Positions 4,592 to 61,501 of a stretch of DNA of 64,000 bases are shown one piece after another (positions within the stretch are counted from its first letter, which is position 1; the number at the start of each line of letters is the position of its first letter). Source of the DNA: Candidatus Moraniibacteriota bacterium (GTDB lineage Bacteria > Patescibacteriota > Minisyncoccia > Moranbacterales > UBA1568); the NCBI GenBank assembly GCA_016699875.1, contig CP064989.1:848525-912524 (forward strand), in the 5' to 3' direction. The notes under the pieces are model-generated. The model was not told the origin of the DNA, did not search any database, and saw only the letters and a list, made by a program, of their open reading frames with translations. A program made the position numbers and the translations under genes.

Positions 4592-7114
4592 TTGCAATTT
4601 TCTATGAAACAATCAGAACCCTCTTCGCCTGAGGAGCTGCTTCTCGGACTGTCATCCCATGAGGCGCATGATCGCTTGGAGCGATTTGGCGAGAATGTTC
4701 TTTCACCTCGCCGGCGTATAAACCCGGTTCTTGCATTTTTCAGGGAGTTTTCGAGTCCACTTCTCATTATTCTCCTGGCGGTTTCTTTCGTTTCCTTCTT
4801 CTTTCTCGGGCAGCGAACCAATGCGACGATTATCTTTGCTATGGTATTAATCTCGGCGGTTGTCGACTTTGCCAATACGTTCCGGTCGGAGCGTGCCGTG
4901 GAGCGACTTGCGGAGCGCGTGCGAACACTCTCTCGCGTGCGTCGCGACGGCAAAGAAAGAGAAGTTGATGCCAGAAGTCTTGTTCCGGACGATATCGTAC
5001 TCCTCTCTGCGGGGAGTCTCATTCCGGCGGATGCGGACGTACTTGAAGCTCGAGACTTTTTCGTTAATCAGTCGGCGTTTACCGGCGAATCATTTCCGGC
5101 GGAAAAGCGTCCGCTGGGCAATCGAACGCAGGCGGAACGCCTGACTGAACGGGACGACCGAGTATTTATGGGCACAAGTGTCGTGTCCGGATTTGCAACC
5201 GTTCGTGTCGCTTTGACGGGAGCACAGACGGAATATGGGAAAATTGCCTCGGGTGTTTCCCGGGAGAAAAGCGAGACTGATTTTGAACGGAATATTCGCG
5301 GATTCAGTCTCTTCGTGATGCGCCTCAACTTTGTACTGGTCGGGCTGGTGCTTTTGGTGAATACGCTTCTGGGACGAGACTTTATCGAGTCATTGACATT
5401 CTCAATTGCAATCGCTATCGGACTGACGCCTGAGCTTCTACCGGTCATGCTCTCGGTTTCACTCGCGCGCGGATCGGTACGCATGGCAAAGAAGCATGCT
5501 ATCGTTAAGAATCTTTCGTCCATACAAAATTTTGGCAGCATGACGGTGCTTTGTACCGACAAAACAGGAACGCTTACGCAAGACAAGATCACGCTCATCA
5601 AGCACATCGACGGAGATGGACATGACTCTGAAGAGGTATTCTTTTATTCGTATCTCAACAGTGCTTATCAAACAGGAGTTAAGAATCCGCTTGATCGGGC
5701 GATTGTGGAACACGGAAAGCCGGATATATCCTCCTATGAAAAAGTGGATGAAGTGCCGTTTGACTTTGTGCGGCGTCGTGAGTCTCTGGTGGTGGCGAAT
5801 CGCGGCAAGAAGATATTGACTACCAAGGGCGCTCCAGAGCACGTGCTTCCCATCGTGTCGTCTATCCGTATTGCCGGGAAAGACGTGGCGATAGATGAAG
5901 ATCGACAGAGAGCTCTTCGGGAATCGGCGGAGACTCTCTTCGGAGAAGGGTTTCGCGTTTTGGCGATTGCCACGAAGACACTCGATGCTGATGATTACAC
6001 TTACGATGCTGCTGATGAGTCGGACATGACATTTGTCGGGTTTGCCGCATTTCTCGACCCGCCAAAGAAAGATGCGATGCAAACCATTCGCGAGCTATCC
6101 GATGTTGGTGTCGCGGTAAAGATTCTTACGGGAGACAGCGATACGCTGACACGGAAAATCTGCGCGGATATCGGTATACCGGTTCTGGGAACCGTACTCG
6201 GGAAAGATATCGATCGGCTGTCTGAGTCAGAAGTGGCAAAACTCGCGCTTAAGACCACGATATTTGCCCGTGTGACGCCGGCAGAGAAAGAGCGTATTAT
6301 TCAAGCGCTTCGCACGCTCCCTGACACGGTGGTCGGCTATATGGGCGATGGCATCAATGATGTAACGGCGCTGCATGCCGCTGACATCGGTATATCGGTT
6401 GAGAATGCGGTCCCGGTTGCCAAGGATGCGGCGAATATTATTCTCCTCGAGAAGAGCTTCTCGGTGCTCAAAGACGGTATTGAGGAGGGAAGGAAGACCT
6501 TTCAAAACACACTCAAATATATTCGCATGTGGATCTCATCGAACTTTGGCAATATGTTTTCGATGATGGGCGCCTCGGCTATCTTGCCGTTTCTTCCGAT
6601 GAGTCCGCAGCAGATTCTTCTCAATAACTTTCTCTACGATTCCTCTCAGGTGGGACTGCCGATGGATCGCGTGGATCGAGAATCTATCACGCGTCCTGCG
6701 CGGTGGGACTTCAGTGGCATACGCCGATTCATGATTATCTTTGGCACGATCAGTTCAGTGTTCGATTTCCTGACATTTGGTGTGCTCTTTCTTTTCTTTG
6801 GACTCAATGAGGGTGTCTTTCAAACGGGATGGTTTTTGGAATCGCTTGCGACACAGGTGCTTGTCATATTCATTGTTCGCACGAGGCACATCCCGTTTTT
6901 CCGAAGCGTGCCGGGAGGATTTCTCATTGCCAATGCGCTTCTTGTCGTTGCAACCGGCTGGCTCATCGCGCTTTCGCCGTTTGGGCGCATATTCGGTTTC
7001 GAGCTTCTGCCGATACCGGTTTTTCTCTCAGTGGTTGGCATCACGATCGCTTATCTCCTCTCGGTTGAAATTGCCAAGCGCATCTTCGAAAAGACCGTTC
7101 GTCTGGAAGGTTGA
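4592..7114 (+). CDS. mgtA: magnesium-translocating P-type ATPase (MgtA/MgtB type)
   Basis: The ORF is 840 aa. It has the P-type ATPase phosphorylation motif CTDKTGTLTQ, the hinge motif GDGINDVTALHAADIGISV, the TGES actuator motif, and an MgtA-like C-terminal membrane region (LLNNFLYDSSQVGLPMDRVD). Confidence 0.85.
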   Translation: MQFSMKQSEPSSPEELLLGLSSHEAHDRLERFGENVLSPRRRINPVLAFFREFSSPLLIILLAVSFVSFFFLGQRTNATIIFAMVLISAVVDFANTFRSERAVERLAERVRTLSRVRRDGKEREVDARSLVPDDIVLLSAGSLIPADADVLEARDFFVNQSAFTGESFPAEKRPLGNRTQAERLTERDDRVFMGTSVVSGFATVRVALTGAQTEYGKIASGVSREKSETDFERNIRGFSLFVMRLNFVLVGLVLLVNTLLGRDFIESLTFSIAIAIGLTPELLPVMLSVSLARGSVRMAKKHAIVKNLSSIQNFGSMTVLCTDKTGTLTQDKITLIKHIDGDGHDSEEVFFYSYLNSAYQTGVKNPLDRAIVEHGKPDISSYEKVDEVPFDFVRRRESLVVANRGKKILTTKGAPEHVLPIVSSIRIAGKDVAIDEDRQRALRESAETLFGEGFRVLAIATKTLDADDYTYDAADESDMTFVGFAAFLDPPKKDAMQTIRELSDVGVAVKILTGDSDTLTRKICADIGIPVLGTVLGKDIDRLSESEVAKLALKTTIFARVTPAEKERIIQALRTLPDTVVGYMGDGINDVTALHAADIGISVENAVPVAKDAANIILLEKSFSVLKDGIEEGRKTFQNTLKYIRMWISSNFGNMFSMMGASAILPFLPMSPQQILLNNFLYDSSQVGLPMDRVDRESITRPARWDFSGIRRFMIIFGTISSVFDFLTFGVLFLFFGLNEGVFQTGWFLESLATQVLVIFIVRTRHIPFFRSVPGGFLIANALLVVATGWLIALSPFGRIFGFELLPIPVFLSVVGITIAYLLSVEIAKRIFEKTVRLEG

Positions 7115-28215: not shown

Positions 28216-28464
28216 TTAATCAATCACTCGCATCGCCCAGAGTTCATCGTCCGTGTATTCCTCTGAAGCAAATTGATCTCGAGCAAGTTGGTTAACGGGT
28301 TGAATATCCCATTCCTCTGGAACTTCATCGCCAACAGCTATACCTGGGCAGTTTGGATCTGTGATGAAAATAAATTTCCCATTGACTTCCCTGGCGTAGC
28401 CACCGCCCTGTGTTACGTAAACAGGGTACTTTCGATCTTCAAGGTCATTCAATTTTTTTTCCAC
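28216..28464 (-). CDS. hypothetical protein (82 aa, acidic)
   Basis: ORF only. No family recognised. Confidence 0.35.
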   Translation of the reverse strand: MEKKLNDLEDRKYPVYVTQGGGYAREVNGKFIFITDPNCPGIAVGDEVPEEWDIQPVNQLARDQFASEEYTDDELWAMRVID

Positions 28465-35672: not shown

Positions 35673-38600
35673 ATGAAAGCCGAAGTTGTTTCTTTGGATT
35701 CTTCTGAGGCAACTCTCTCTCCCGGAGAGAGAGTGTTTAATCTTCTGCCGGAAACTGTTCAGGGTAAACTTTCCGGTCGCTATAATAGGGAAGAAATAGC
35801 GAGGCGAGTACTTCGGGAGCTTGGAGAAGGAAAACGAGATGACAGATCTCTACATAATGGAGTTGTGTCAGCTATTTACCTTGACAAAGATATTCCATCT
35901 TCAATCAAGAAGGGTCTTTTGAGACATCTGGGCAGTATCGTTCCAGCGCAGGAAAATGAGACTTTGAAATTCTTTAAAAAGGTGAATAAAAACTTGGAAA
36001 ACCAACAAGTGCGTAAAGGAGACGTGCGGCAGCAGAATTCAACTTCAGCGGATACGCACAGGCATGACGATGACGCTATTGATCGGGAGGTTCGAGCGGT
36101 TGGCGCGGATATGCACCCCGATCATAGTGAAAAACTTGAACAAAAAAAGTATATTGCAAGAGAAAGAGCTTCCAAAAAGTCAAAGCAAGCAAAAGTGGCA
36201 AGTGTTCCAGGGGAATCCCATGACAGCAGAAAACCTTCAAACCTCGAAGGGAATGTTCAGGGTGACGCATCTGTATCCGAAGATCTTCCTGATGACCAAA
36301 AAGTAAGTCCGCCAAACGAGGGGTATTTCGGCTCGCTTGATTACATAGAAGCAATAGATGATCAAAGTCTGGATGCTTCAGTCGCGCAGCAAGAGGGAAT
36401 TGATTGGGAGGGTGTCAAGAAGGATTTTGATGAAGAAGGGAAAAGGATACAGGAGGAACGTGCGCGTTCAGTGAAGTTCAATCGATTGGATGTACAGGAA
36501 ACGTTCGACCAAGGAATGGAGCAATTGAAAAATCGTGACAAACTTGCTGAACGTTTTCGTGATGTTAAAAGCTTCGATGAGCTCTTAGTGCTTCTCAATG
36601 ATCCGGAGTTTCCCGGAATTCAGGGCTCGAAGCAGTTCTACTCCGGTGATGACTTGAAAAGAATAATTGCCATAGCTCGAGAAACTGGAGCGACGAAATT
36701 TGTCACACGCTCTCATGGATTTCTTGATATGGCGGAGCGGCTCTTGCGCGAGGAGAAAGAAGGAAAGATTGGCGCATTGAAAGAGGATAATATTGTGGAA
36801 GGTTTTGGTGTTGTGAACCGTACAGCTCCCGGTGTTTTTGAAAGAGTTCCGGATGCGCTGAATGAATTGCATATTGAGAAAGAGAATGATCTTTCTCGCG
36901 CAGTCGAATCTTTGGAAGAGCTTCAGGAGAGGGTGGATCGATTGAAAAATGATGCAGATGCTGCAAGAAATCTCTTGTTCTCTTGTCGACGGAAGAATGG
37001 TGATCGATGGAAGGAGGTGAAAAAGTTTTTTGCTTTTCCAAAGGAAAAGGAAGCTCCAAAACCAGTGATTGAAGAATGGGAAATGTTGGAGGTGGCTTGG
37101 AAATATAGACTTACCCTCTACAAGGATGCTCGGGTGGAGTTGGCAAAGCGCCAGGTTGCAGAAGGTGGTTTGCAAGGGAGGGATGTCGGTGCTGTTATGG
37201 CGGAGACGATTCGGGAGTTGGATTTTCGCGGAAGAGTGGAAAACTACAATGCGTGGAAAGATGCGGCGTGGAGTGGCAAGAAGGATTCATGGCTTCTTCG
37301 GGCAGTCGGTCGGGCGAAAGATTGGGGCGAATCGTATCGAAAGCTTGACTGGAAGAAGCGCGCGGCGATTTCCGCGCTGGTGATAGGCGCGGGCGCGACC
37401 GGCGTTGCCGTAGGATCAGTCGGATTGATTGGATTGGGTGCGGCAAGTGGCGTGGCGGTCCGATTGCTGGGGTCATACGCCGCCGGGCGCGGACTTTATG
37501 AATACCTGGAGGGTCGTGCCAACAAAGATACGGTGAAGTTTCAGGAGGCAGCACTTTCTCATGTCGAGCAATCCGGCGATATTGGTTTCCTCGATCATCG
37601 TACGCGGGATTATGCCGATCGAATACGGAAGGATTTCGAACAGATGACGAGGAAGAATCGGAAACGGGTGTGGGCGGGCGTAGCTGCCGGAGCATTACTT
37701 TTTGCGGGCGGGACGGCGCTCTCGCTCGCGCATGCGGCAAGTGCGGCGGAGCGGGTAGTGGACGGTGGAAGTGGCAAACAAGTTGTACAAGATGCTCTTA
37801 CAGCGAGAGGTGCTGAGATTCCGGAGATATCAAAAAATGTTCCTGTTGTTCCGAGTGTTGTCGAAGCGAGCGTACCTGCATCGGATACGAGTGGGCTTAT
37901 GCCGGATTCGGTTGGATCGGGGGTGGTTGACCATGGGATATCGGTTGAGGCTGCCGGGGACATTGGGAAAAGTTTTGAGAATATGGAAATAGCTGCCGTT
38001 CCAAAGGGCGGGAGTTTCGAGAAGGTTCTCATTGAGAAGCTTACGGGAGTCGGGATTCCTAAAGAAGAAGCAGGGAAGCTGGCGCATCGGGCGATGCTTG
38101 ACTTGGCGGAGAAATCAGGAAAGTCGTTTGAGATATTTAATCATATCCAACCAGGTGCGGAGATTCAGTATGAGATAGGTCCGGACAAATCCCTCTCTGT
38201 GTTTGGTGTGACCAGGGAAGCTGGCGGTCGGGTGATTCAGCGGATGGCGGGTTCTGCCCTGGAGGGAAGCCATGCTTCGCCGGATGTGCAAGTCCTCGAA
38301 GAGGTTCTGTCTCCGCCTTTGCAGCCGACTGATGCGGTCTCTGTTCCCTCTGTTCAGACGCCTCCTTTGAGCTCGTTTCCAAAGATGCCCGAAGTAAACC
38401 TGGAGTCTCCACCGGATATTTTTGATCGCGTGCTTCCGGAAGTGCCACAAATTCCTCCTCTTGAAGACACACTGAGCGGGAATGTTCCTCTTGATACTTC
38501 AGTATCTGCACATCCTCTTGAATCTATTTCGACAAACATCCCTGCCCCGGCGCATGATTTCGAGTCGCTTGACCTTTCTGTTCCCGGCGGGGAATATCTG

Positions 38601-38975
38601 AAGAATATCGGTTCGGTAGTAAAGGAAAGGCTGACATTCCTTCCGCTTTCCGAAACACAGAAAGATCTTATAGAGAACATCTTTAGTGCGAGAATTCCGA
38701 CGGCGGGCACTGAGCCGACAACGAGTTCCGTGTTGTTTGTAAGAGATGCTCTTGGAAAAGCTCTTTTCTCGTCGGGTGATGTGGAACGCTGGATGCAAGC
38801 TGATATCGAACAAGTGCGAGAGAGGGTGAATAAGGCAATCTATGCCGGCATTGTTCGTATTGGTGGCGAGTCGCTACGCATTGGAAAAATGGTCGCGGAG
38901 GGTGAGACGGTAGAGGGTTGGCTGACAAAAATGGCGCGACATATCCTTACACATCCGATTGAACCTGCGAAATAA
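35673..38975 (+). CDS. large hypothetical membrane protein (1100 aa): acidic or disordered N-terminal half, two Gly/Ala-rich TM segments, P/S-rich C-terminal region
   Basis: It is a long uninterrupted ORF. TM-like glycine-zipper segments are AISALVIGAGATGVAVGSVGLIGLGAASGVAV and VWAGVAAGALLFAGGTALSLAHAA. No enzymatic motif was recognised. Confidence 0.6.
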   Translation: MKAEVVSLDSSEATLSPGERVFNLLPETVQGKLSGRYNREEIARRVLRELGEGKRDDRSLHNGVVSAIYLDKDIPSSIKKGLLRHLGSIVPAQENETLKFFKKVNKNLENQQVRKGDVRQQNSTSADTHRHDDDAIDREVRAVGADMHPDHSEKLEQKKYIARERASKKSKQAKVASVPGESHDSRKPSNLEGNVQGDASVSEDLPDDQKVSPPNEGYFGSLDYIEAIDDQSLDASVAQQEGIDWEGVKKDFDEEGKRIQEERARSVKFNRLDVQETFDQGMEQLKNRDKLAERFRDVKSFDELLVLLNDPEFPGIQGSKQFYSGDDLKRIIAIARETGATKFVTRSHGFLDMAERLLREEKEGKIGALKEDNIVEGFGVVNRTAPGVFERVPDALNELHIEKENDLSRAVESLEELQERVDRLKNDADAARNLLFSCRRKNGDRWKEVKKFFAFPKEKEAPKPVIEEWEMLEVAWKYRLTLYKDARVELAKRQVAEGGLQGRDVGAVMAETIRELDFRGRVENYNAWKDAAWSGKKDSWLLRAVGRAKDWGESYRKLDWKKRAAISALVIGAGATGVAVGSVGLIGLGAASGVAVRLLGSYAAGRGLYEYLEGRANKDTVKFQEAALSHVEQSGDIGFLDHRTRDYADRIRKDFEQMTRKNRKRVWAGVAAGALLFAGGTALSLAHAASAAERVVDGGSGKQVVQDALTARGAEIPEISKNVPVVPSVVEASVPASDTSGLMPDSVGSGVVDHGISVEAAGDIGKSFENMEIAAVPKGGSFEKVLIEKLTGVGIPKEEAGKLAHRAMLDLAEKSGKSFEIFNHIQPGAEIQYEIGPDKSLSVFGVTREAGGRVIQRMAGSALEGSHASPDVQVLEEVLSPPLQPTDAVSVPSVQTPPLSSFPKMPEVNLESPPDIFDRVLPEVPQIPPLEDTLSGNVPLDTSVSAHPLESISTNIPAPAHDFESLDLSVPGGEYLKNIGSVVKERLTFLPLSETQKDLIENIFSARIPTAGTEPTTSSVLFVRDALGKALFSSGDVERWMQADIEQVRERVNKAIYAGIVRIGGESLRIGKMVAEGETVEGWLTKMARHILTHPIEPAK

Positions 38976-40429: not shown

Positions 40430-42931
40430 ATGGAGACGACTTTTGATTTCAATCTGATTCTTATCCCACTTCTTTTTGTGGTCGGAGCGCTTGCTGCGCT
40501 TTCGGGAATCTTGCTGTTGATTCGGATGATTCTGTTTTTCAGATCACGGATCAATCGATCGCTTAATATGGACCTGGAAACGATTCAGGTGTCGAAGCCG
40601 GCTGAGCGAAAAGGGGAATCGTCGCGCCCGGATGAATGGAAGGAGGAAATTGGTGCAATGGAACAGCTTTTGGTGTCGCTCCAATCCTTCCGCGGGATGA
40701 AACACGGTTTTGATGTGTTCTCCGGTATGAAGCGGTTTTTCTATGGTCCGCCAGCCATTGTGTTTGAGGTGGCGAATCCGGAGAGAGATGAGGAGATGAC
40801 TTTTTTTCTTTCCATGCCGAGAAAGTTTCGTGAGAGTATCGAGAAACAGGTACACAGCTTTTTCCCAAACGCATTCGTTGAAAAGGTGAAGGACTACACT
40901 ATTTTCTCGCCGAAAGGATTCTCGTCCGTTTCAATACTTTCGCTTTCGAAAAGTCCGGCACTTCCCATACGGACGTATGAGTCACTCGATGTGGATCCGC
41001 TCAATGAGATTTCAAACTCTTTGAGTAAGCTCTCCAAAGAGGGTGAAGGCGCAGCGATGCAAATCATTCTCTCGCCGGCGGGCACCTCATGGCGTTCGGA
41101 GGGGCGGCGTATCGCACATGAAATGCAGCAGGGGAAGCGTTTGGCGGATGTGTATCACGAATCGCCGTTTTTGCACTTTCTCGGATCGGCATTCGCCTCT
41201 CTTTTTCATGCGGCGGTTCATGCGAACAAGCCTGCTGAACCGTTGAATGACAAGTCGCTTGTCCAGTTGACTCCGGAAGAGCAGGAGCTGGTGAAGTCAA
41301 TCGAGCGCAAGGTATCGAAGGCGGCGTTTCATGCCAATGTCCGATTGCTTGCCTCAGCTGCTTCTCAGGAGCGGGCAGATCAGATTCTCGCAACGATGGA
41401 GAATGCGTTTGCGCAGTTTGAATATCCGGACGCAAATCTTTTCCGGACGCGCCGTTTGCGGGATCGGTCGGCGAAGCCGGTGATTTTCGACTACATTTTC
41501 CGAGCATTTCGCCCGGAAACATCGTTTCTCTTGGGCGTTGAAGAGGTGGCGAGTCTTTTTCATTTTCCCATATCGACAACTGAGACGCCGAATATAAAAT
41601 GGCAGAAAGCCGGTTCCGCGCCGCCGCCGCCGAATATTCCGAAAGACGGCATCCTCTTGGGACACAATGATTATCGCGGCGTGAAGACGGATATCCGTTT
41701 AGCTGTTGCCGATCGTCGGCGACATCTCTACTGTATCGGACAAACCGGTGTTGGAAAGTCGGTATTCTTGCAGGAGATGGCGAAGCAAGACGTGCGTGAG
41801 GGACGGGGACTGTGCTTTATTGATCCGCATGGCGACGCAGTGCAAGATATCTTAGCGGCAGTGCCTCGGGAACGCGCCGAAGATGTCGTCTATTTCGATC
41901 CTGCTGATACGGAGCGCCCGTTCGGACTTAATATGCTTGAGTTCTCTCGGCCGGAAGAAAAGACTTTCGTCGTAAACGAGATGATCAATATTTTCGGGAA
42001 ACTTTACGACTTGAAACAGACGGGCGGACCGATGTTTGAGCAGTATATGCGAAATGCCATGCTTCTCATCATGGAAGACCCGACGACAGGTTCGACGCTC
42101 ATGGAGATATCGAAGGTGCTTGCTGACCCGGATTTCCGTCGGATGAAGCTCGACCGATGCAAGAATCCGGTAGTGTATGACTTCTGGGTGAAGGAGGCAG
42201 AAAAAGCAGGCGGTGAAGCGTCGCTTGCGAATATGGTGCCCTACATCACGTCGAAGCTCACGCCTTTCGTGGCAAATGACATGATGCGCCCGATTATCGC
42301 GCAACAGAAGAGTACTCTTGATTTCCGCACGCTCATGGATGAGAAGAAGATCATCTTACTCAATCTCTCAAAGGGAAAACTCGGGGAAATTAACAGTCAC
42401 TTGCTCGGCATGGTCGTGGTGGGGAAGATCTTAATGGCAGCGCTCTCGCGGGCGGATATCCCCGAAGCGGACCGAAAAGATTTCTCGCTCTACATCGATG
42501 AGTTTCAGAATGTAACTACGGACTCTATCGCGCAAATCCTCTCCGAGGCGCGAAAATACGGGCTCAATCTCATTATTGCGCACCAATTTATCGGACAGCT
42601 CTCGGAGGATATCTCGAAAGCGGTCTTTGGTAACGTGGGCTCAATGGTTTCATTTCGAGTTGGTCCCGAAGATGCGGAATTTCTTGAGAAGCAATTCGCA
42701 CCGATCTTCTCAGCTCGCGATCTGGTGAATGTTGACAATTACCGTGCTTTCGTCCGTCTTCTCATCAATAATCAGTCTACGAAACCGTTCAATCTCTCAG
42801 TCTATCCGCCAACATCCGGCGATGAGGAGCTTGCCGGGCATCTCAAGGAACTCTCGCGTCTTCGCTTTGGCCGCGACGCCGATATCGTCAATCACGAGAT
42901 AATGGAGCGGACGAAGCTGGCAGCTGCGTAG
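40430..42931 (+). CDS. type IV coupling protein-like ATPase (VirD4/TraD/TraG family) fused to an N-terminal TM + uncharacterised domain (833 aa)
   Basis: N-terminal TM is ILIPLLFVVGALAALSGILLLIRMILFF. Walker A GQTGVGKS is followed about 25 aa later by FIDPHGD (compare F-plasmid TraD GATGTGKS..IVDPNGD). Walker B-like YIDEFQN and a ..ARKYGLNLIIAHQ.. motif are present. The N-terminal ~430 aa are homologous to gene 58071..59369. The C-terminal ATPase is homologous to 59417..61501. Confidence 0.7.
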   Translation: METTFDFNLILIPLLFVVGALAALSGILLLIRMILFFRSRINRSLNMDLETIQVSKPAERKGESSRPDEWKEEIGAMEQLLVSLQSFRGMKHGFDVFSGMKRFFYGPPAIVFEVANPERDEEMTFFLSMPRKFRESIEKQVHSFFPNAFVEKVKDYTIFSPKGFSSVSILSLSKSPALPIRTYESLDVDPLNEISNSLSKLSKEGEGAAMQIILSPAGTSWRSEGRRIAHEMQQGKRLADVYHESPFLHFLGSAFASLFHAAVHANKPAEPLNDKSLVQLTPEEQELVKSIERKVSKAAFHANVRLLASAASQERADQILATMENAFAQFEYPDANLFRTRRLRDRSAKPVIFDYIFRAFRPETSFLLGVEEVASLFHFPISTTETPNIKWQKAGSAPPPPNIPKDGILLGHNDYRGVKTDIRLAVADRRRHLYCIGQTGVGKSVFLQEMAKQDVREGRGLCFIDPHGDAVQDILAAVPRERAEDVVYFDPADTERPFGLNMLEFSRPEEKTFVVNEMINIFGKLYDLKQTGGPMFEQYMRNAMLLIMEDPTTGSTLMEISKVLADPDFRRMKLDRCKNPVVYDFWVKEAEKAGGEASLANMVPYITSKLTPFVANDMMRPIIAQQKSTLDFRTLMDEKKIILLNLSKGKLGEINSHLLGMVVVGKILMAALSRADIPEADRKDFSLYIDEFQNVTTDSIAQILSEARKYGLNLIIAHQFIGQLSEDISKAVFGNVGSMVSFRVGPEDAEFLEKQFAPIFSARDLVNVDNYRAFVRLLINNQSTKPFNLSVYPPTSGDEELAGHLKELSRLRFGRDADIVNHEIMERTKLAAA

Positions 42932-47371: not shown

Positions 47372-47815
47372 ATGAGACCTTTCTTCTGTTTTGATAGCAA
47401 CAAGGAAATATTTATTATGGGTTTCAGAGAGGAGGATGCTTGTAAAAAGGCTGTTATGCTTGTCAGAGAAGGTGCGCAAGAGGTATTTTGCCGACTTTAT
47501 CCTACGCGTGACAAGCGTCTTAAGACTACTTGGGAAAATTCACTTTGGGACAACCCTGACGACGATAGTCCATTCAGATTATTTAGATTCAAACATAATT
47601 TTTCTGAAGAAGGAGTTTCTCAAGCGTGGGCACTGTTTTGGCTTTCCCGAGAGAACTATTTTCTTTTAATCAGTTTTCAAAGGAGTTTGGGGAGAGGTTT
47701 TGTTCCCGGATATCGTTTCAAGTTTCGCCTTACAAAATGTGGGCGGATAGTCCTAAGGCGGAGGAAGGGGAAGATGGACTGTCAGAAAGAAATAAGAAAG
47801 CTTTTAGCCTCTTAG
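47372..47815 (+). CDS. hypothetical protein
   Basis: ORF only. Its 3' end overlaps the convergent GT4 gene by a few nt. Confidence 0.3.
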   Translation: MRPFFCFDSNKEIFIMGFREEDACKKAVMLVREGAQEVFCRLYPTRDKRLKTTWENSLWDNPDDDSPFRLFRFKHNFSEEGVSQAWALFWLSRENYFLLISFQRSLGRGFVPGYRFKFRLTKCGRIVLRRRKGKMDCQKEIRKLLAS

Positions 47816-49083
47816 TCACTACTAAGCTCACAGTACAACTTTTCATACTCCTTCGCCGTCTCTTTGAGATCAAATGATCTCTCCACAAACGCCCTCGCAT
47901 TCGTGCCAAGGGCGTTTCTTTTTGCCTCATTGGCGCGAAGCGACTCGATGGCGCTCCAGAGAGCGTCGCCATTGTCACGGGGAATGGTAGCAGAAATTTG
48001 CGGGTTTGAGAACTCTTCGAATATCGGAAGGTCGGAGAGAATCACCGGTCTTCCGCAGGCATAGGCTTCGAGGATAACGAGTGGCACATCGAACTTTCCG
48101 TGCATATTGCTGACCGGAAAGGTAACAATGTCGGCAATATTGTAGAGTGCGGCGACATCGGAGACCGTATCGCTGAAGCGCACCTGGTCAAGTATTCCCG
48201 CTTTCCGGAATTTCTCTGTGATTTCCTCTTTCTTCTTTTGGTCGGCATCGTTTTTGATACGGAGCGCGAAGAGGAATTTCATGTCTTCGCCACCCATGCG
48301 ATCCGCCAGCTGACGGATGGGGTCCAGATTTTGCTGACTCAAGGGAATGTCTTCGCAAACTCTACTTGCTAGAGCCTCCCGTTGGCTGGTGGTGTCTGGA
48401 TTCCCGCCTTCGCGGGAATGACGACTTGGACTACGTGATACGTGTTTGACGAGCATGTCGGCGATCATATCAGTCGCACCGAGGCGAGCATATTCGCCGG
48501 CATAGGAAATGACAAAGTCAGCCGGAGAGATGTTGAGTTTTTTGAGGGTTTCGGGATCTTTTGGTCGCGGAGAGAATCGTTCGAGGTCGATTCCCGGGTA
48601 TATGCGCTCAACATTCTCAAGGCCAACTGATTGCAGTTTCTGCTTCGAGTACTCGGTATAGGTGATGAGGCGGTCAGCAAAAAACATACGCTTCCAATCT
48701 GACTCATTCCATCGCTCTTCACGGAGTGTTGCGATAGTCTGAATCGTCTTGGGATGCGTGCCGATGAGGTGTTTTGACAGGAAAGAGTTGAAAGGTGTCG
48801 GCGTGAAGAGGAAATGTACCATATCAAACGTTCGCCCTTTGGTTCCAAGAAACGCAGCGAGGCGCGCCTTGGCTTCGAAGTTGAATCGACCGCTTCGGAA
48901 TATCGGGTGTTGGACGCAGTTTGTGCCCAATTCCTCGAGTGTTTCGTTGGCGGTGAGCAGGTGAAATTCGAGCTGTGGATCCCGGATGCTCTTTGCCAAG
49001 AAATACGCGAAGTTTTTCGACGCTTCATCCCATGGCGGCACGAGCGGCCGAGTAGCAAGGAGGATTTTGATGGGAGTTGACAT
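47812..49083 (-). CDS. glycosyltransferase family 4 carrying an in-frame palindromic insertion
   Basis: The C-terminal GT4 motif is ..VPLVILEAYACGRPVILSDLP... An internal low-complexity segment (..SRSPSRHSREGGNPDTTSQREALASR..) is encoded by a hairpin-forming repeat-like sequence. Confidence 0.7.
   Translation of the reverse strand: MSTPIKILLATRPLVPPWDEASKNFAYFLAKSIRDPQLEFHLLTANETLEELGTNCVQHPIFRSGRFNFEAKARLAAFLGTKGRTFDMVHFLFTPTPFNSFLSKHLIGTHPKTIQTIATLREERWNESDWKRMFFADRLITYTEYSKQKLQSVGLENVERIYPGIDLERFSPRPKDPETLKKLNISPADFVISYAGEYARLGATDMIADMLVKHVSRSPSRHSREGGNPDTTSQREALASRVCEDIPLSQQNLDPIRQLADRMGGEDMKFLFALRIKNDADQKKKEEITEKFRKAGILDQVRFSDTVSDVAALYNIADIVTFPVSNMHGKFDVPLVILEAYACGRPVILSDLPIFEEFSNPQISATIPRDNGDALWSAIESLRANEAKRNALGTNARAFVERSFDLKETAKEYEKLYCELSSD
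48396..48422. repeat. short palindromic REP-like element inside the GT4 coding region
   Basis: ggattcccgc-cttc-gcgggaatg(acg) is a perfect 9-bp stem. On the plus strand it reads DSRLRGND-like, resembling widespread small interspersed palindromes. Coordinates are approximate. Confidence 0.4.
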
Positions 49084-49110
49084 AATTCGTTTGTTTGGAT
49101 AAGATGTTCT

Positions 49111-49398
49111 ATGCTTGACAATTCACGATTTAATTCAAAAAGAGAGGAATTTTCAATGTTAATGAAATTCGTCCTGAATAGTAGTCATGAAGCACTTTTT
49201 GTTCAACATTTCTCTGCCAGCGCGGCTGTTCCCAGGGTTGGGGACATTGTTGGAAATTTCCCGCTAGGAAGTAGGAATGAATATTTGGTGATACGGGTCA
49301 AATGGGTTCTTGATGACTCTATCGAAGCAAGAGAGAACAATGCCCTTATTAAGAATATGCGGGACGTGGAAATAACTCTCGTTTCGTATATCCCTTAA
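49111..49398 (+). CDS. hypothetical protein (95 aa)
   Basis: ORF only. Confidence 0.3.
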   Translation: MLDNSRFNSKREEFSMLMKFVLNSSHEALFVQHFSASAAVPRVGDIVGNFPLGSRNEYLVIRVKWVLDDSIEARENNALIKNMRDVEITLVSYIP

Positions 49399-49494
49399 CT
49401 TCGAGATCAACTCGAAAAAACATGTTTGTCTACTGGGCGGTGAAGCAAATGTGGATCCGCCTTTATTGTTCCTTATTCTTCATTTCCTCTCTTA

Positions 49495-50342
49495 GAACCT
49501 GTTTACAATCTTTTCAACAACAATCGAGCAAAACTTAAAACCATCATCTGTAAGCTCGAATCCAGTGTCCGTTCGCAATTCTTCCAGAGCCTTCGGCATT
49601 TCTCCAGCCAGGAGAAGCTTCTCTCGACCACCCAGCGCTGAGGAAGAACGGCAAACGTATGCAATTCGTTTCGTTTAGCTACTCCCACTTCCGCACCGAT
49701 ACATGCTTTGATCGCTTTGGCGAAGTTTTCTCCGGTATAACTACCATCAGTCAAGAGTTTCTCCACCCGTGAAAGGTGTTTTTTGTTTGCCTTGACGGCT
49801 TGGATAGCTCCATTTCGATCAGTGACGTTAGCAGTGGTTACCGTGAACGCATGCGGCAATCCGTTGGTGTCAACGAGAATATGTCGCTTGATACCGGAAA
49901 CTTTTTTCCTGCATCATAACCTTTTTCTCGAGCCGTATCTGTATTCTTGACACTTTGAGCATCAACGATGCAGAAACTGGTTTTGCATTGTTTGCCATTT
50001 TTCATACGTTCTTGTTCGACCAATTTTTTTTAAGACTTGCTCAAGCATACTCTCTGTCTGTTTGTTTTTTCGTTCCTTCCAGACAAGGAAGTGTCGATAG
50101 ACACTCTGCCATTTTGGATAATCCTTGGGAAGTGCCCTCCATTGGCAACCCGTGACCAGAATGTAGAGCAGAGCGTTGAATACGTCATAGGAATCAAGTG
50201 TCTTTGGTTTGGTTCTCTTCCTGGTTGATTCGAGAAATGGTCTGATGTGTTCGAATTGTTCTCGGGTTATGTCGCTTGGATACATGGTTCTTTTGGTTTG
50301 AGGATTATGTCCTCAGTGTACCAGAAGATTGTAAACAGGTTC
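49495..50342 (-). mobile_element. IS5-family insertion sequence (ISL2/IS1031-like, ~848 bp) with 18-bp terminal inverted repeats and TTA target-site duplication
   Basis: The left end gaacctgtttacaatctt (49495..49512) is the exact reverse complement of the right end aagattgtaaacaggttc (50325..50342). Flanking TTA is found on both sides. An internal DDE transposase (GCQWRALPKDYPKWQSVYRHF, IVDAQSVKNTDTAREKGYDAGKK, WVVERSFSWLEKCRRLWKNCE) is encoded in three frames. Confidence 0.75.
49503..50285 (-). pseudogene. IS5-family DDE transposase, interrupted by two frameshifts located at poly-A runs
   Basis: It spans three table ORFs (49962..50285, 49838..50023 and 49503..49859, all minus). Junction 1 is at ttaaaaaaaattgg and junction 2 at ggaaaaaagttt. 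Each needs a +1 shift to restore the conserved protein (..LEQVLKK|LVEQER.. and ..GYDAGKK|VSGIKRHILVDTNGL..). Confidence 0.75.
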
Positions 50343-50710
50343 TTATAAATCTCTTTCTTCTTACTCAATTCTTTACTTTCTCTGTTTGACTCGTTTTCCG
50401 TCCAGACGCGTATGGTAATGGGCTGCTTGTTTGGGTTCTTGGCGAGGATGGTTTGTCCGCCGGTGCCGCTCAGGGTGAATGAGGCGGATTCGGTGATAGT
50501 GTCGCCTTCCTGTACTTCGTAGAAGAATGTTCGTGTGGGACCGAAATTTGAAACAGTGAAACTCGCATCGGTTTCTTGCTGCGAAGCAAATGAGAGTGAC
50601 CACCAATCGGAATGCGATGGGTCGGCAAGGAAGCTCTCGCGAAAGGCGAGCACGGAAAAGGCGAGGGCAATGGAGATGGCGATAGAGAGAATAAGCGTCT
50701 TTTCTTTCAT
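50267..50710 (-). CDS. hypothetical secreted protein whose 3' end runs into the IS element (C-terminus likely replaced by the insertion)
   Basis: A signal peptide MKEKTLILSIAISIALAFSVLA is present. The last ~25 codons and the stop lie inside the IS right end. Confidence 0.4.
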   Translation of the reverse strand: MKEKTLILSIAISIALAFSVLAFRESFLADPSHSDWWSLSFASQQETDASFTVSNFGPTRTFFYEVQEGDTITESASFTLSGTGGQTILAKNPNKQPITIRVWTENESNRESKELSKKKEIYKNLFTIFWYTEDIILKPKEPCIQAT

Positions 50711-59416: not shown

Positions 59417-61501
59417 ATGTCTGACAATATTACCTATTTCGCCAAGACGAACTTCCGGAACGAAGATCGGGTTTTCGGTATCAAAGCCGATGATCGTCGT
59501 CGGCATATGTATGTCATTGGGAAAACGGGCATGGGGAAGACTAATATGCTCGAGAATCTGGTTATTCAAGATATTCAACACGGACACGGCGTCGCTTTCA
59601 TTGATCCGCATGGCGATACGGCGGAGAAGCTGATTCGCGCTATTCCGCCGTCGCGCGTCAATGACGTCATTTACTTCAATCCGTCAGATCAGGATTTCCC
59701 GGTAGCATTCAATGTGATGGAACATGTGTCGGCGGAGTACCGGCACCTGGTTGCTTCCGGCTTGGTCGGCGTTTTCAAGAAGATTTGGGCGGACTCTTGG
59801 GGACCGCGCCTCGAGTATATCTTGCGCAATGCGATTTTGGCGCTTCTGGAATATCCGGGGAGCACGCTTTTGGGTGTGATGCGCATCCTGGTTGACAAGG
59901 AGTATCGCAAACGTGTCGTCGACAAGGTGACGGATCCGGTCGTGAAGTCATTTTGGGTTGATGAATATACCAAGTGGAATGACCGCGTGTTGCAGGAAGT
60001 GATTGCACCGATCCAAAACAAAGTCGGGCAATTCCTCTCGAGTTCGCTCATCCGAAATATTGTCGGGCAGACCGTCTCGTCATTCGATGTTCGCGATATC
60101 ATGGACCGTCGGAAGATTCTTATCATGAATCTTTCGAAGGGGCGTATCGGGGAAGACAATAGTGCTCTTATCGGCGCAATGATGATTACCAAGATACAGC
60201 TTGCGGCGATGGGGCGTGTGGACATTCCGGAAGATGATCGCCAGGACTTCTATCTTTATGTTGATGAGTTTCAGAATTTCGCAACGGAGTCATTTGGTAA
60301 TATTCTTTCCGAGGCGCGGAAATATCGGCTGAATTTGATTCTTGCAAACCAGTATATTTTGCAAATCGAAGAATCGGTTCGAGATGCGATCTTTGGCAAT
60401 ACGGGAACGATTATCAGTTTTCGTGTTGGAGCGACTGATGCGGAATTCCTTGAAAAAGAGTTCTCCCCGATTTTCTTGGCAACGGATATTGTAAACTTGG
60501 AAAAGTACCATATCTATCTCAAGCTCATGATTGACGGCATCTCCGGGGATGCTTTCAGTGCGACGACGCTTCCTCCGATCGATCTGCCGGAGAGTGATGA
60601 AAATGCTGAGAAGGTGGTTCGTATTTCTCGGGAGCGGTACGCGGCCAAGAAGCAAGATGTCGAAGATAAAATTCGCCGGTGGACTGGTATCTTGACTGAA
60701 GAGGAGCGGCAGAATTTTGAAGAGCGAATGCGAATGCGCGCCGAAACGACTCTTGCTAAAAAGGCTCCCGTTGAAATCGATGGCTCTCTGTCGACGCCGC
60801 CTTCCTCATCGGTGCGCCAGCAGGAATTCTTCAGGAGCTCTTCTCATGACAACCGATCTACTCCTGATCGAATATCTCGTCATGAATCCCCCTCGCGCAT
60901 ACCAACCGGTCATCCTTATCGGAATTCCGCTCTTCCAAATGAACTGACGATTTCCTCGGATTCGCCGTCTCTAACGGGAACGACGAGCGCTTCCATGCAA
61001 TCAGCTGATCGATTGCGACGAGACCCATCTGAGCATTCGGGAAATGAGATATCATCTCCCAGTTCTCGACCTCTGTACAAATCCGTATGTGCAGTATGTG
61101 GTGTCGAGATTGACGTTCCGTTCAAGCCCGATGGGAAGCGTCCGACATTTTGTCGAGAGCACTTCAAAAGTTTTCAGAAGACGATTGCTCGTACGAGAAC
61201 AGGCGTGGACATGCAGTCCTCCCAAGCATCGCCCGAGAAACGTTCGGAGCATGTGCGGGACGATCATTCCGAGGAAAATCCAGCGTACTCCCGCAGAGAA
61301 GATGCGCCATCGGAAGTGTCGCGCGAACGCCATTCGTTTGCTCCAAAGGCGTATGTCTCGATGGAGACGCCGCTTTCTTTGGGGCAGATGCAATATATCG
61401 CTCCAAAACCTTTTAAGCGTAGCAAGGAGAAAATCGATTTGGGAGAAGTTCGCAGGATTCTTTCGTCCGAACGAACCGCTGATGGCCATTCAGATTCTTA
61501 G
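59417..61501 (+). CDS. type IV coupling protein-like ATPase (VirD4/TraD/TraG family) with S/R-rich C-terminal tail containing a zinc-ribbon-like motif
   Basis: Walker A GKTGMGKT, then FIDPHGD. Walker B-like YVDEFQN. ..ARKYRLNLILANQ.. is present. Beyond about aa 480 the sequence is low-complexity S/P/R-rich. It contains CAVCGVEIDVPFKPDGKRPTFCREHF, a C-x2-C..C-x2-H pattern. Confidence 0.7.
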   Translation: MSDNITYFAKTNFRNEDRVFGIKADDRRRHMYVIGKTGMGKTNMLENLVIQDIQHGHGVAFIDPHGDTAEKLIRAIPPSRVNDVIYFNPSDQDFPVAFNVMEHVSAEYRHLVASGLVGVFKKIWADSWGPRLEYILRNAILALLEYPGSTLLGVMRILVDKEYRKRVVDKVTDPVVKSFWVDEYTKWNDRVLQEVIAPIQNKVGQFLSSSLIRNIVGQTVSSFDVRDIMDRRKILIMNLSKGRIGEDNSALIGAMMITKIQLAAMGRVDIPEDDRQDFYLYVDEFQNFATESFGNILSEARKYRLNLILANQYILQIEESVRDAIFGNTGTIISFRVGATDAEFLEKEFSPIFLATDIVNLEKYHIYLKLMIDGISGDAFSATTLPPIDLPESDENAEKVVRISRERYAAKKQDVEDKIRRWTGILTEEERQNFEERMRMRAETTLAKKAPVEIDGSLSTPPSSSVRQQEFFRSSSHDNRSTPDRISRHESPSRIPTGHPYRNSALPNELTISSDSPSLTGTTSASMQSADRLRRDPSEHSGNEISSPSSRPLYKSVCAVCGVEIDVPFKPDGKRPTFCREHFKSFQKTIARTRTGVDMQSSQASPEKRSEHVRDDHSEENPAYSRREDAPSEVSRERHSFAPKAYVSMETPLSLGQMQYIAPKPFKRSKEKIDLGEVRRILSSERTADGHSDS

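Follow-up and report, generated by a model that had tools for sequence, protein, structure and literature searches.

The question raised by this locus is whether a transposase gene that cannot be read through in a single frame has been damaged or is organized that way. The locus lies in a stretch of 64,000 nucleotides (nt) from Candidatus Moraniibacteriota bacterium (contig CP064989.1, positions 848,525 to 912,524 of the forward strand), which is referred to below in its whole length as the window, and it consists of an 848-bp insertion sequence (IS) of the IS5 family at 49495-50342, whose transposase is encoded on the minus strand. A preliminary description had presented the element as structurally complete and its transposase as broken twice, both times at poly-A homopolymers. 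The account that we consider likely is that this is an IS5 copy in which the first of the two A runs (site 1) is a programmed +1 site, and the second (site 2) carries a loss specific to this copy, which is probably a nanopore error.

The element and its ends are delimited as follows.
49495 to 50342, minus strand: complete IS5-family insertion sequence, recognized by its terminal inverted repeats (TIRs), a match to NF033580, Pfam domains and full-length 849-bp relatives with the same ends in more than 20 short-read contigs
49495 to 49512, no strand: TIR at the transposase-stop end, GAACCTGTTTACAATCTT, a perfect match to the other end
50325 to 50342, no strand: TIR at the transposase-start end, GAACCTGTTTACAATCTT, a perfect 18-bp match to the other end
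49492 to 49494, no strand: TTA flank, proposed copy of the target-site duplication; the flanks of the relatives are all TTA or TAA
50343 to 50345, no strand: TTA flank, proposed second copy of the target-site duplication; homology to the empty allele of a related strain (L029) ends here

The perfect inverted repeat measures 19 nt (49494-49512 and 50325-50343), that is, the 18-bp TIR extended by a single flanking base. The window has exactly two copies of the 18-mer, where 0.08 are expected by chance, and two matches were obtained in none of 100 shuffles. The transposase of 260 amino acids (aa), rebuilt by correcting the frames, scored 242.4 bits against the NCBIfam model NF033580 (transpos_IS5_3; cutoff 110), its residues 2-257 covering positions 1-258 of the 258 in the model, and it contains DUF4096 at the N-terminus (PF13340, 1e-19) and DDE_Tnp_1 (PF01609, 5e-29). 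The full-length model match, the DUF4096 and DDE domains, and the TIRs with a short target duplication are those of an IS5-family element, and in this respect the preliminary description, which had reported a complete element with perfect 18-bp TIRs, was borne out. It was also borne out in calling this the only mobile element in 64 kb, as no other transposase or integrase Pfam domain was found among the 49 window open reading frames (ORFs) of at least 110 aa. The TTA target duplication held in part: TTA is indeed present at both flanks, but every related IS copy is flanked by TTA or TAA (the target is always T-W-A), and because related copies always sit in such targets, matching flanks would be met about half the time without a simple insertion. 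The duplication would thus be weak proof of one.

The transposase is read on the minus strand in three pieces, namely MYPSD...LEQVLKK (piece 1), LVEQERMKNG...IVDAQ...GYDAGKK (piece 2) and VSGIKRHILVD...LLLKRL followed by the stop (piece 3). Pieces 1 and 3 share a frame, and piece 2 lies in the +1 frame.
50025 to 50285, minus strand: orfA, 87 codons to Lys-Lys, comprising the DUF4096 DNA-binding part (reading frames, Pfam)
50024 to 50031, minus strand: site 1, an A8 run, TTA AAA AAA A followed by TTG, the putative orfA-orfB +1 recoding site (conserved in relatives)
49901 to 50023, minus strand: first segment of orfB in the +1 frame (LVEQ...IVDAQ...GYDAGKK), with the first catalytic Asp (frames, alignment)
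49901 to 49907, minus strand: site 2, A6 and G, read GGA AAA AAG, one base short of the in-frame state of the relatives
49503 to 49901, minus strand: second segment of orfB in the orfA frame (VSGIKRH...LLLKRL and stop), with the second Asp and the Glu of the DDE triad (frames, alignment)

The joints were located at the A8 run (T8 on the plus strand, 50024-50031) and at an A6 run (T6, 49902-49907), and hence both do fall in poly-A tracts; the wording "broken twice" was only half right, since the A8 joint appears to be a conserved recoding site, as set out below. The signs of the two shifts are opposite: because pieces 1 and 3 are in the same frame, site 1 needs +1 (A8 read as A7) and site 2 needs -1 (A6 read as A7), and not +1 at both, as had been stated. 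A single uninterrupted ORF would require A7/A7, so that the run lengths A9/A7, earlier named for an intact transposase, were wrong. The native state of the IS appears to be A8/A7. In the unshifted frame, orfA continues to a stop at 49962-49964 and gives a product of 107 aa, and the first segment of orfB in the sequence as given stays open until a stop at 49838. The catalytic residues D108, D180 and E221, which are invariant in an alignment of 18 sequences, are here split between pieces 2 and 3. As written, the window copy would be expected to give OrfA and a truncated OrfA-B' of 148 aa, with essentially no transposase.

The evidence on site 1 comes from its relatives. The 90%-identity cluster of the rebuilt transposase holds, beside the annotated products of this metagenome-assembled genome (MAG) itself, only split products from short-read assemblies, these being 107-aa orfA proteins ending in ...LKKIGRTRTYEKWQTMQNQFLHR and orfB proteins of 167-171 aa; orfA products of 107 aa with the same frame-0 tail as in the window are found in relatives (P0124, P0127). 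At the DNA level, A8 was observed in all 14 identical full-length loci of the L019 type (849 bp each) and in five truncated loci, these loci being drawn from more than 20 short-read samples and standing in several different flanks. It was also observed in lineages of 86% (L025), 81% (L022, L023 and L028) and 68% (L027) nucleotide identity. Overall, the combination of A8 (or AAA_AAA_A) and a +1 orfB extends over three bacterial phyla and over lineages whose nucleotide identity is 96, 86, 81 and 68%. A metagenome scan with the pattern GAGCAAGTCTTAAAAAAN{0,4}TTGGTCG, in which A6 to A10 were allowed, returned three loci only, two with A8, one of them only 68% identical, and an A7 pseudogene. No fused proteins between 73% and 100% identity, the MAG's own products excepted, were found in a database of 5.8 billion clusters. 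Throughout the family, the joint is preceded by Lys-Lys without exception, and the product QQS15647.1/QQS16096.1 of the same genome reads ...KKIVEQ..., which is the outcome of a +1 join on an A8 run. The ratio of nonsynonymous to synonymous substitution rates (dN/dS) among the A8 lineages was 0.06-0.17 for orfA and about 0.06 for orfB, with dS ranging from 0.15 to saturation; both ORFs are therefore under purifying selection, the one in the +1 frame included.

The same arrangement is met in plasmids of cultured bacteria. A tblastn search against plasmids gave 1,830 records, and the alignment was in two pieces in 34 of the 40 best matches; four plasmid elements, from Moraxella, Bacillus, Spiroplasma and Levilactobacillus, were examined closely. 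In Moraxella osloensis, the annotated single coding sequence (CDS) spans 796 nt (3n+1) and has the joint CTTAAAAAAAATTGGTC; that of Bacillus mycoides spans 790 nt (3n+1), with the joint CATAAAAAAATTGGTC. The Spiroplasma copy, annotated as 'IS5 family transposase ISCaa8', has A8 and a +1 orfB at 58.8% identity. The preliminary description had seen no obvious single programmed frameshift here; the A8/+1 arrangement of site 1 in all short-read relatives and the +1 joint in the Moraxella, Bacillus and Spiroplasma elements contradict it. Judged from these comparisons, the A8 joint is a conserved, putatively programmed +1 orfA/orfB recoding site of an IS5 subgroup and not damage.

Two other explanations of site 1 have to be set against these data. 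According to the first, which was the main reading of the preliminary description, slipped-strand mutation truly produced both breaks, leaving a dead pseudogene in which A8 is a mark of damage. This would account for the position of both joints in homopolymers, for the fact that the Prokaryotic Genome Annotation Pipeline (PGAP) assigned no protein to the window copy, and for the existence of A7 fused relatives; however, A8 with an intact orfA and orfB is the only state seen in the short-read assemblies of four lineages, where it persists under purifying selection, and the same +1 joint has been annotated as one CDS in plasmids of cultured bacteria. Taken as a whole, it is very improbable, and with regard to site 1 it appears largely refuted by the relatives, the selection and the plasmid copies. 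According to the second, the assembly is wrong at both joints and the gene is in truth one A7/A7 ORF, for which the presumed nanopore origin of the assembly and the annotation of the sister protein QQS15609.1 as uninterrupted over 260 aa may be cited. The error at site 1 would then have to be a nanopore over-call, and A8 is present in all Illumina-assembled relatives and in two sister copies, the latter deduced from their proteins. We give this explanation hardly any credence.

Some of the related loci show peculiarities of their own. L026, a fused (A7) relative on a metagenome contig with 63% guanine plus cytosine, has TAG at 5310-5312 and 5490-5492, in place of conserved Tyr residues of the family in GYDAGKK and DGGY; the copy is probably in decay, though both stops fall on Tyr codons. 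In L025 (70-865), orfA is highly divergent and orfB is identical to the L019 type, with the switch at the A8 run; the element may be a recombinant, or else the contig is a chimera of the de Bruijn graph. The loci L002-L019 combine the same left flanks with different right flanks across short-read contigs; the contigs are therefore partly chimeric across the repeat, and the apparent insertion sites cannot be paired. On scanning genome contigs with the left-end 20-mer, the exact 20-nt IS end was found in a Gastranaerophilales MAG (L020, 1767-1786, end only), and a 20-nt IS end with a 30-aa remnant of the transposase C-terminus was found in a Methylococcaceae MAG (L021, 7311-7435). Related elements may have inserted long ago in other phyla and decayed there, unless the matches reflect contamination during binning.

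In the mechanism proposed for site 1, the DDE transposase would be encoded as two overlapping frames, the DNA-binding orfA and the catalytic orfB (+1), which meet at the Lys-Lys tract AAA AAA A before TTG, here forming the A8 run. Only when one A is lost, in a minority of expression events, would full-length transposase be made. By one route, RNA polymerase would slip to give an A7 (or A10) transcript, as with IS1447, for which the A8 run should be long enough; by the other, tRNA-Lys would slip +1 on the run, with perfect re-pairing one base downstream. Transcriptional or +1 ribosomal slippage is most likely what bridges the site, and the two routes seem inseparable from the sequence. Expression without a shift would be expected to yield OrfA of 107 aa, and A9 transcripts a short variant, with OrfAB transposase in the minority; a low shift frequency would keep transposition low. 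Precedents are available for the transcriptional route. In cDNA of IS1447, one A was lost in 9 of 52 clones and one gained in 8 of 52; its OrfAB requires a +1 frameshift and seven A's suffice (PMC6211511). Transcriptional slippage has likewise been proposed for conserved A8/A9 runs located where orfA and orfB of IS elements overlap (PMC1088944).

The nearest named relative appears to be ISCaa8 of the IS1031 group, an assignment made through homology to the Spiroplasma copy labelled with that name. ISCaa8 of Amoebophilus asiaticus is an IS5-family element of 893 bp with two ORFs (+1) (PMC3196728). The ISCaa8-like elements of Spiroplasma, Moraxella osloensis and Bacillus mycoides are likewise about 850-890 bp long and encode a transposase of about 260 aa with DUF4096 and DDE_Tnp_1, and the plasmid elements share with the window IS two ORFs in a +1 relation at the Lys-Lys AAA AAA A before TTG. 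They differ from it in amino-acid sequence (59-63% identity), whereas the window IS has a host in the candidate phyla radiation (CPR)/Patescibacteria and a second frame break that is foreign to the family. Membership of the IS427 group, considered for the size and the two-ORF layout, was set aside, as the only plasmid match with an IS name was labelled ISCaa8 (IS1031, +1). Elements of that group from Paracoccus (IS1248, ISPpa2 and others) are similar in belonging to the IS5 family, in their length of 830-865 bp, and in having two overlapping ORFs with a conserved frameshift motif, and one natural single-ORF variant is known among them (PMC3281130); unlike the window IS, they mostly make 2-bp duplications.

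The best experimental model for site 1 is IS1447 of Clostridium thermocellum, in which OrfAB likewise depends on a +1 shift in a run of A's, the shift having been shown experimentally to be RNA polymerase slippage that removes one A. It differs in belonging to another family (IS3), in its A9 run and in a preceding stem-loop, no structure having been found at site 1 of the window. IS elements of Deinococcus radiodurans and Nostoc are also alike in having a conserved A8/A9 run at the orfA/orfB overlap, with conserved ORF organization (PMC1088944), and the run length was reported to vary from 8 to 10 between Nostoc copies (PMC1088944, Baranov et al. 2005). In a plasmid relative from Levilactobacillus brevis (L038, ~452), the shift occurs at the same Lys-Lys tract (TTAAAAAAATTGTC, A7), but orfA and orfB are joined by -1 instead of +1; in the Lactobacillaceae branch, the recoding site appears to be conserved and the shift direction changed. 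Overall, the element is an ordinary IS5-family IS, and a Patescibacteria addition to a known group of +1-recoded IS5 elements.

At site 2, the comparison gave a different result. Relatives read GGCAAAAAAGTT, GGAAAAAAGATT, GGAAAGAAAGTG or GGAAAGAAAGTC there, all in frame, and the window reads GG-AAAAAAGTT, within the Gly-Lys-Lys codons of the conserved GYDAGKK motif; the A6 and G arrangement was found in no relative compared. A search for other copies in the genome had been recommended, and four sister copies were recognized from annotated proteins (QQS15457.1, QQS15609.1, QQS15647.1 and QQS16096.1). Three of these read GKKVSG; QQS15457.1 reads GKKFSG, as would be expected if it had the same A6 run and were joined there by a -1 step. 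Written as (site 1, site 2), the five known copies are (A8,A7) twice, (A7,A7), (A7,A6) and, in the window, (A8,A6), the window state being read from DNA and the four sister run lengths deduced from annotated proteins. There is no other amino-acid change among the five, and each deviation from A8/A7 is the loss of one A. Exact look-ups of the 107-aa orfA product, the middle pieces of 55 and 61 aa, the 118-aa C-terminal ORF and the hypothetical 167-aa A8/A7 product found none of them on record. That site 2 might be a hot spot of the family was considered and rejected, as plasmid copies in three pieces have their extra break elsewhere. From these comparisons, the A6 break is evidently an anomaly of the window copy and not part of the design of the element.

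It could be supposed that a double recoding keeps even this copy functional, with +1 at AAA_AAA_A followed by -1 at A_AAA_AAG, in a two-step attenuator like that of ISCaa9. The missing base does create an A_AAA_AAG heptamer exactly in the X_XXY_YYZ register of the orfB frame (GGA AAA AAG), and a -1 slip there would give ...GKKVSGIKRH. This heptamer is among the most shift-prone in Escherichia coli, the frequency without a stimulator being about 0.3% (PMC4066793), and QQS15457.1, with the same joint, was annotated by PGAP as one CDS. ISCaa9, an IS5-family element of A. asiaticus with three ORFs, offers a precedent with two recoding events, one of them -1 at AAAAAAG (PMC3196728); its arrangement, however, is common to 15 of 15 copies, whereas only a minority of the copies of the window IS, and none of its relatives, have the second break. 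Folding of 83 nt at site 2 showed no significant structure (z = -1.39) and no convincing stem at a spacing of 5-9 nt, and a shift at the unstimulated rate multiplied by the site-1 step would give a negligible yield. With the A6 and G state conserved in no relative, a functional double recoding is a far-fetched explanation of the second break.

The origin of the assembly bears on whether the loss at site 2 is real. The source MAG is a single contig of 1,088,644 bp with locus tags IPK84_ (QQS15562.1, QQS15564.1 and QQS15565.1 being neighbours in the window). An Illumina-only contig (SRR11674035) is 100% identical to the window over 3,929 bp (54261-50333) and stops 10 nt inside the IS; it crosses the IS edge, and therefore the insertion junction is real in short reads. 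SRR11674035 contains Illumina data from the Fredericia wastewater treatment plant and is paired with the Oxford Nanopore run SRR11673978 (PMC11809585). In the pipeline of this data set, CANU was applied to R9.4.1 reads, followed by Racon, two rounds of Medaka and one round of Racon with Illumina reads (PMC8012365). It has been described that R9.4.1 consensus sequences carry homopolymer indels which lead to frameshifts (PMC9262707).

The other 20 long homopolymers of the window (seven or more A/T, six or more G/C) all lie inside open frames, with one at an overlap. A search for homopolymer-linked breaks in other large genes of the window found none, and gave one ambiguous overlap of small ORFs at an A8 run. 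At this run (28453-28460, minus strand), a membrane-like ORF of 102 aa shares 16 nt (28449-28464) with one of 82 aa in a different frame; it may be that two genes overlap here, or that a frame change in the homopolymer has split a single gene. Polishing with short reads is weak in multi-copy repeats, as the reads map best to copies that are already correct. An uncorrected nanopore under-call at site 2, missed by polishing in a multi-copy repeat, is favoured because every deviation is the loss of a base, because R9.4.1 consensus carries such indels and because polishing is weak in repeats; the open frames at the other window homopolymers and the perfect Illumina contig over 3.9 kb of unique sequence point the same way. 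We regard the under-call as somewhat the more probable origin of the A6 run, and a true one-base deletion as a serious possibility. If the deletion is real, the window copy would be a near-dead pseudogene that could still be moved in trans.

A broader form of the latter is that the deletion at site 2 is genuine here and arose independently in QQS15457.1, that the A7 runs at site 1 in two sister copies are genuine as well, and that the tracts are hypermutable DNA switches by which single IS copies are turned up (A7 at site 1) or off (A6 at site 2). The five copies, otherwise identical, cover all four combinations of states; homopolymers are hot spots of replication slippage (PMC3711429); and the Illumina-only assembly SRR11674035 has none of the expected clean IS ORFs, as if the copies differ. 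The deviations, however, are all one-base losses, as R9.4.1 errors predict, they occur only in the one multi-copy repeat of the window, where polishing is least effective, and no such variation is seen among short-read relatives. This remains a tentative explanation which we find rather doubtful. That the differences in tract length are real and act as DNA-level switches on top of RNA-level slippage, in a repair-poor CPR bacterium, we consider unlikely. If it were true, A7 at site 1 would mean constitutive transposase and A8 an attenuated one, A7 at site 2 would be 'on' and A6 nearly 'off', leaky through A_AAA_AAG, and single IS copies would flip between hot, throttled and silent states.

Several points weigh against the account preferred here, in which site 1 is recoded and site 2 is a copy-specific loss. 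The A8 state is polyphyletic on a neighbour-joining tree, and the tract has therefore switched between A7 and A8 more than once. Fused relatives with A7 exist (P0002/L031 and L026), the nearest of them, P0002, having the same sequence with A7 at 74% nucleotide identity, and a 'hidden A7 master copy' model would, strictly speaking, still be compatible with the data. Slippage at site 1 is something we infer from conservation and precedent, and no stimulatory RNA structure was found there (minimum free energy over 151 nt around the run, z = -0.48 versus shuffles); such structures accompany recoding runs in some systems and are not obligatory. With regard to site 2, the sister run lengths come through annotated proteins, as stated above, and we infer the pipeline of the Singleton data set for this MAG from the identical Illumina contig. 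Whether site 2 is an error or a true deletion is a matter of judgement ahead of read inspection, and a repair-poor CPR bacterium could truly vary at A7/A8 tracts.

The IS stands at the 3' end of a neighbouring gene.
50267 to 50710, minus strand: gene for a signal-peptide protein of 147 aa (QQS15564.1), the last 24 residues and stop of which are encoded by the IS

The earlier statement that the insertion replaces the 3' end of this gene is thereby confirmed, and the uninterrupted allele, for which a search had been proposed, was found in a related strain (L029/L030), which is 96.7% identical over window 54710-50343 and lacks the IS. The allele encodes 124 aa (P0134) and ends in ...KEIYKR and a stop. 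The gene order of secreted protein, short variable stretch and GT4 gene is kept in that strain. Homology between the two stops exactly at the IS edge, the next 0.4-0.5 kb being unrelated (window 49084-49494; L029 4369-4880), and the GT4 gene beyond the IS is only 80% identical. The IS lies at the boundary of a conserved and a replaced segment, and may mark recombination or replacement rather than a plain insertion. The surrounding genes encode glycosyltransferases, a flippase and a UDP-glucose dehydrogenase, in agreement with the glycosylation island described earlier.

A hairpin with a perfect 8-bp stem, ATTCCCGC-cttc-GCGGGAAT, was noted at 48398-48420, within the GT4 gene (47812-49083, minus strand). 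It is translated in frame as ...HSREGGNP..., within a linker of about 110 aa between two glycosyltransferase domains, it is kept in P0132 of the related strain, and it occurs once in the window; it looks like a small palindromic repeat element absorbed into the coding region. The only other hints of mobile elements or secretion in the window are two paralogous TrwB/TraG-like coupling-protein ATPases (40430-42931 and 59417-61501), the first of which adjoins large proteins that have no Pfam hits (35673-38975).

The element is a known kind of recoded IS5 and opens no new question. For annotation, it advises caution in two directions. A homopolymer frame change in a multi-copy repeat of a nanopore MAG should be given no biological meaning until flank-anchored reads have been checked. 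A frame change at the Lys-Lys A tract is, in this IS5 subgroup, normal gene structure and not decay, and the same recoding site would be common to CPR bacteria, Moraxella, Bacillus and Spiroplasma.

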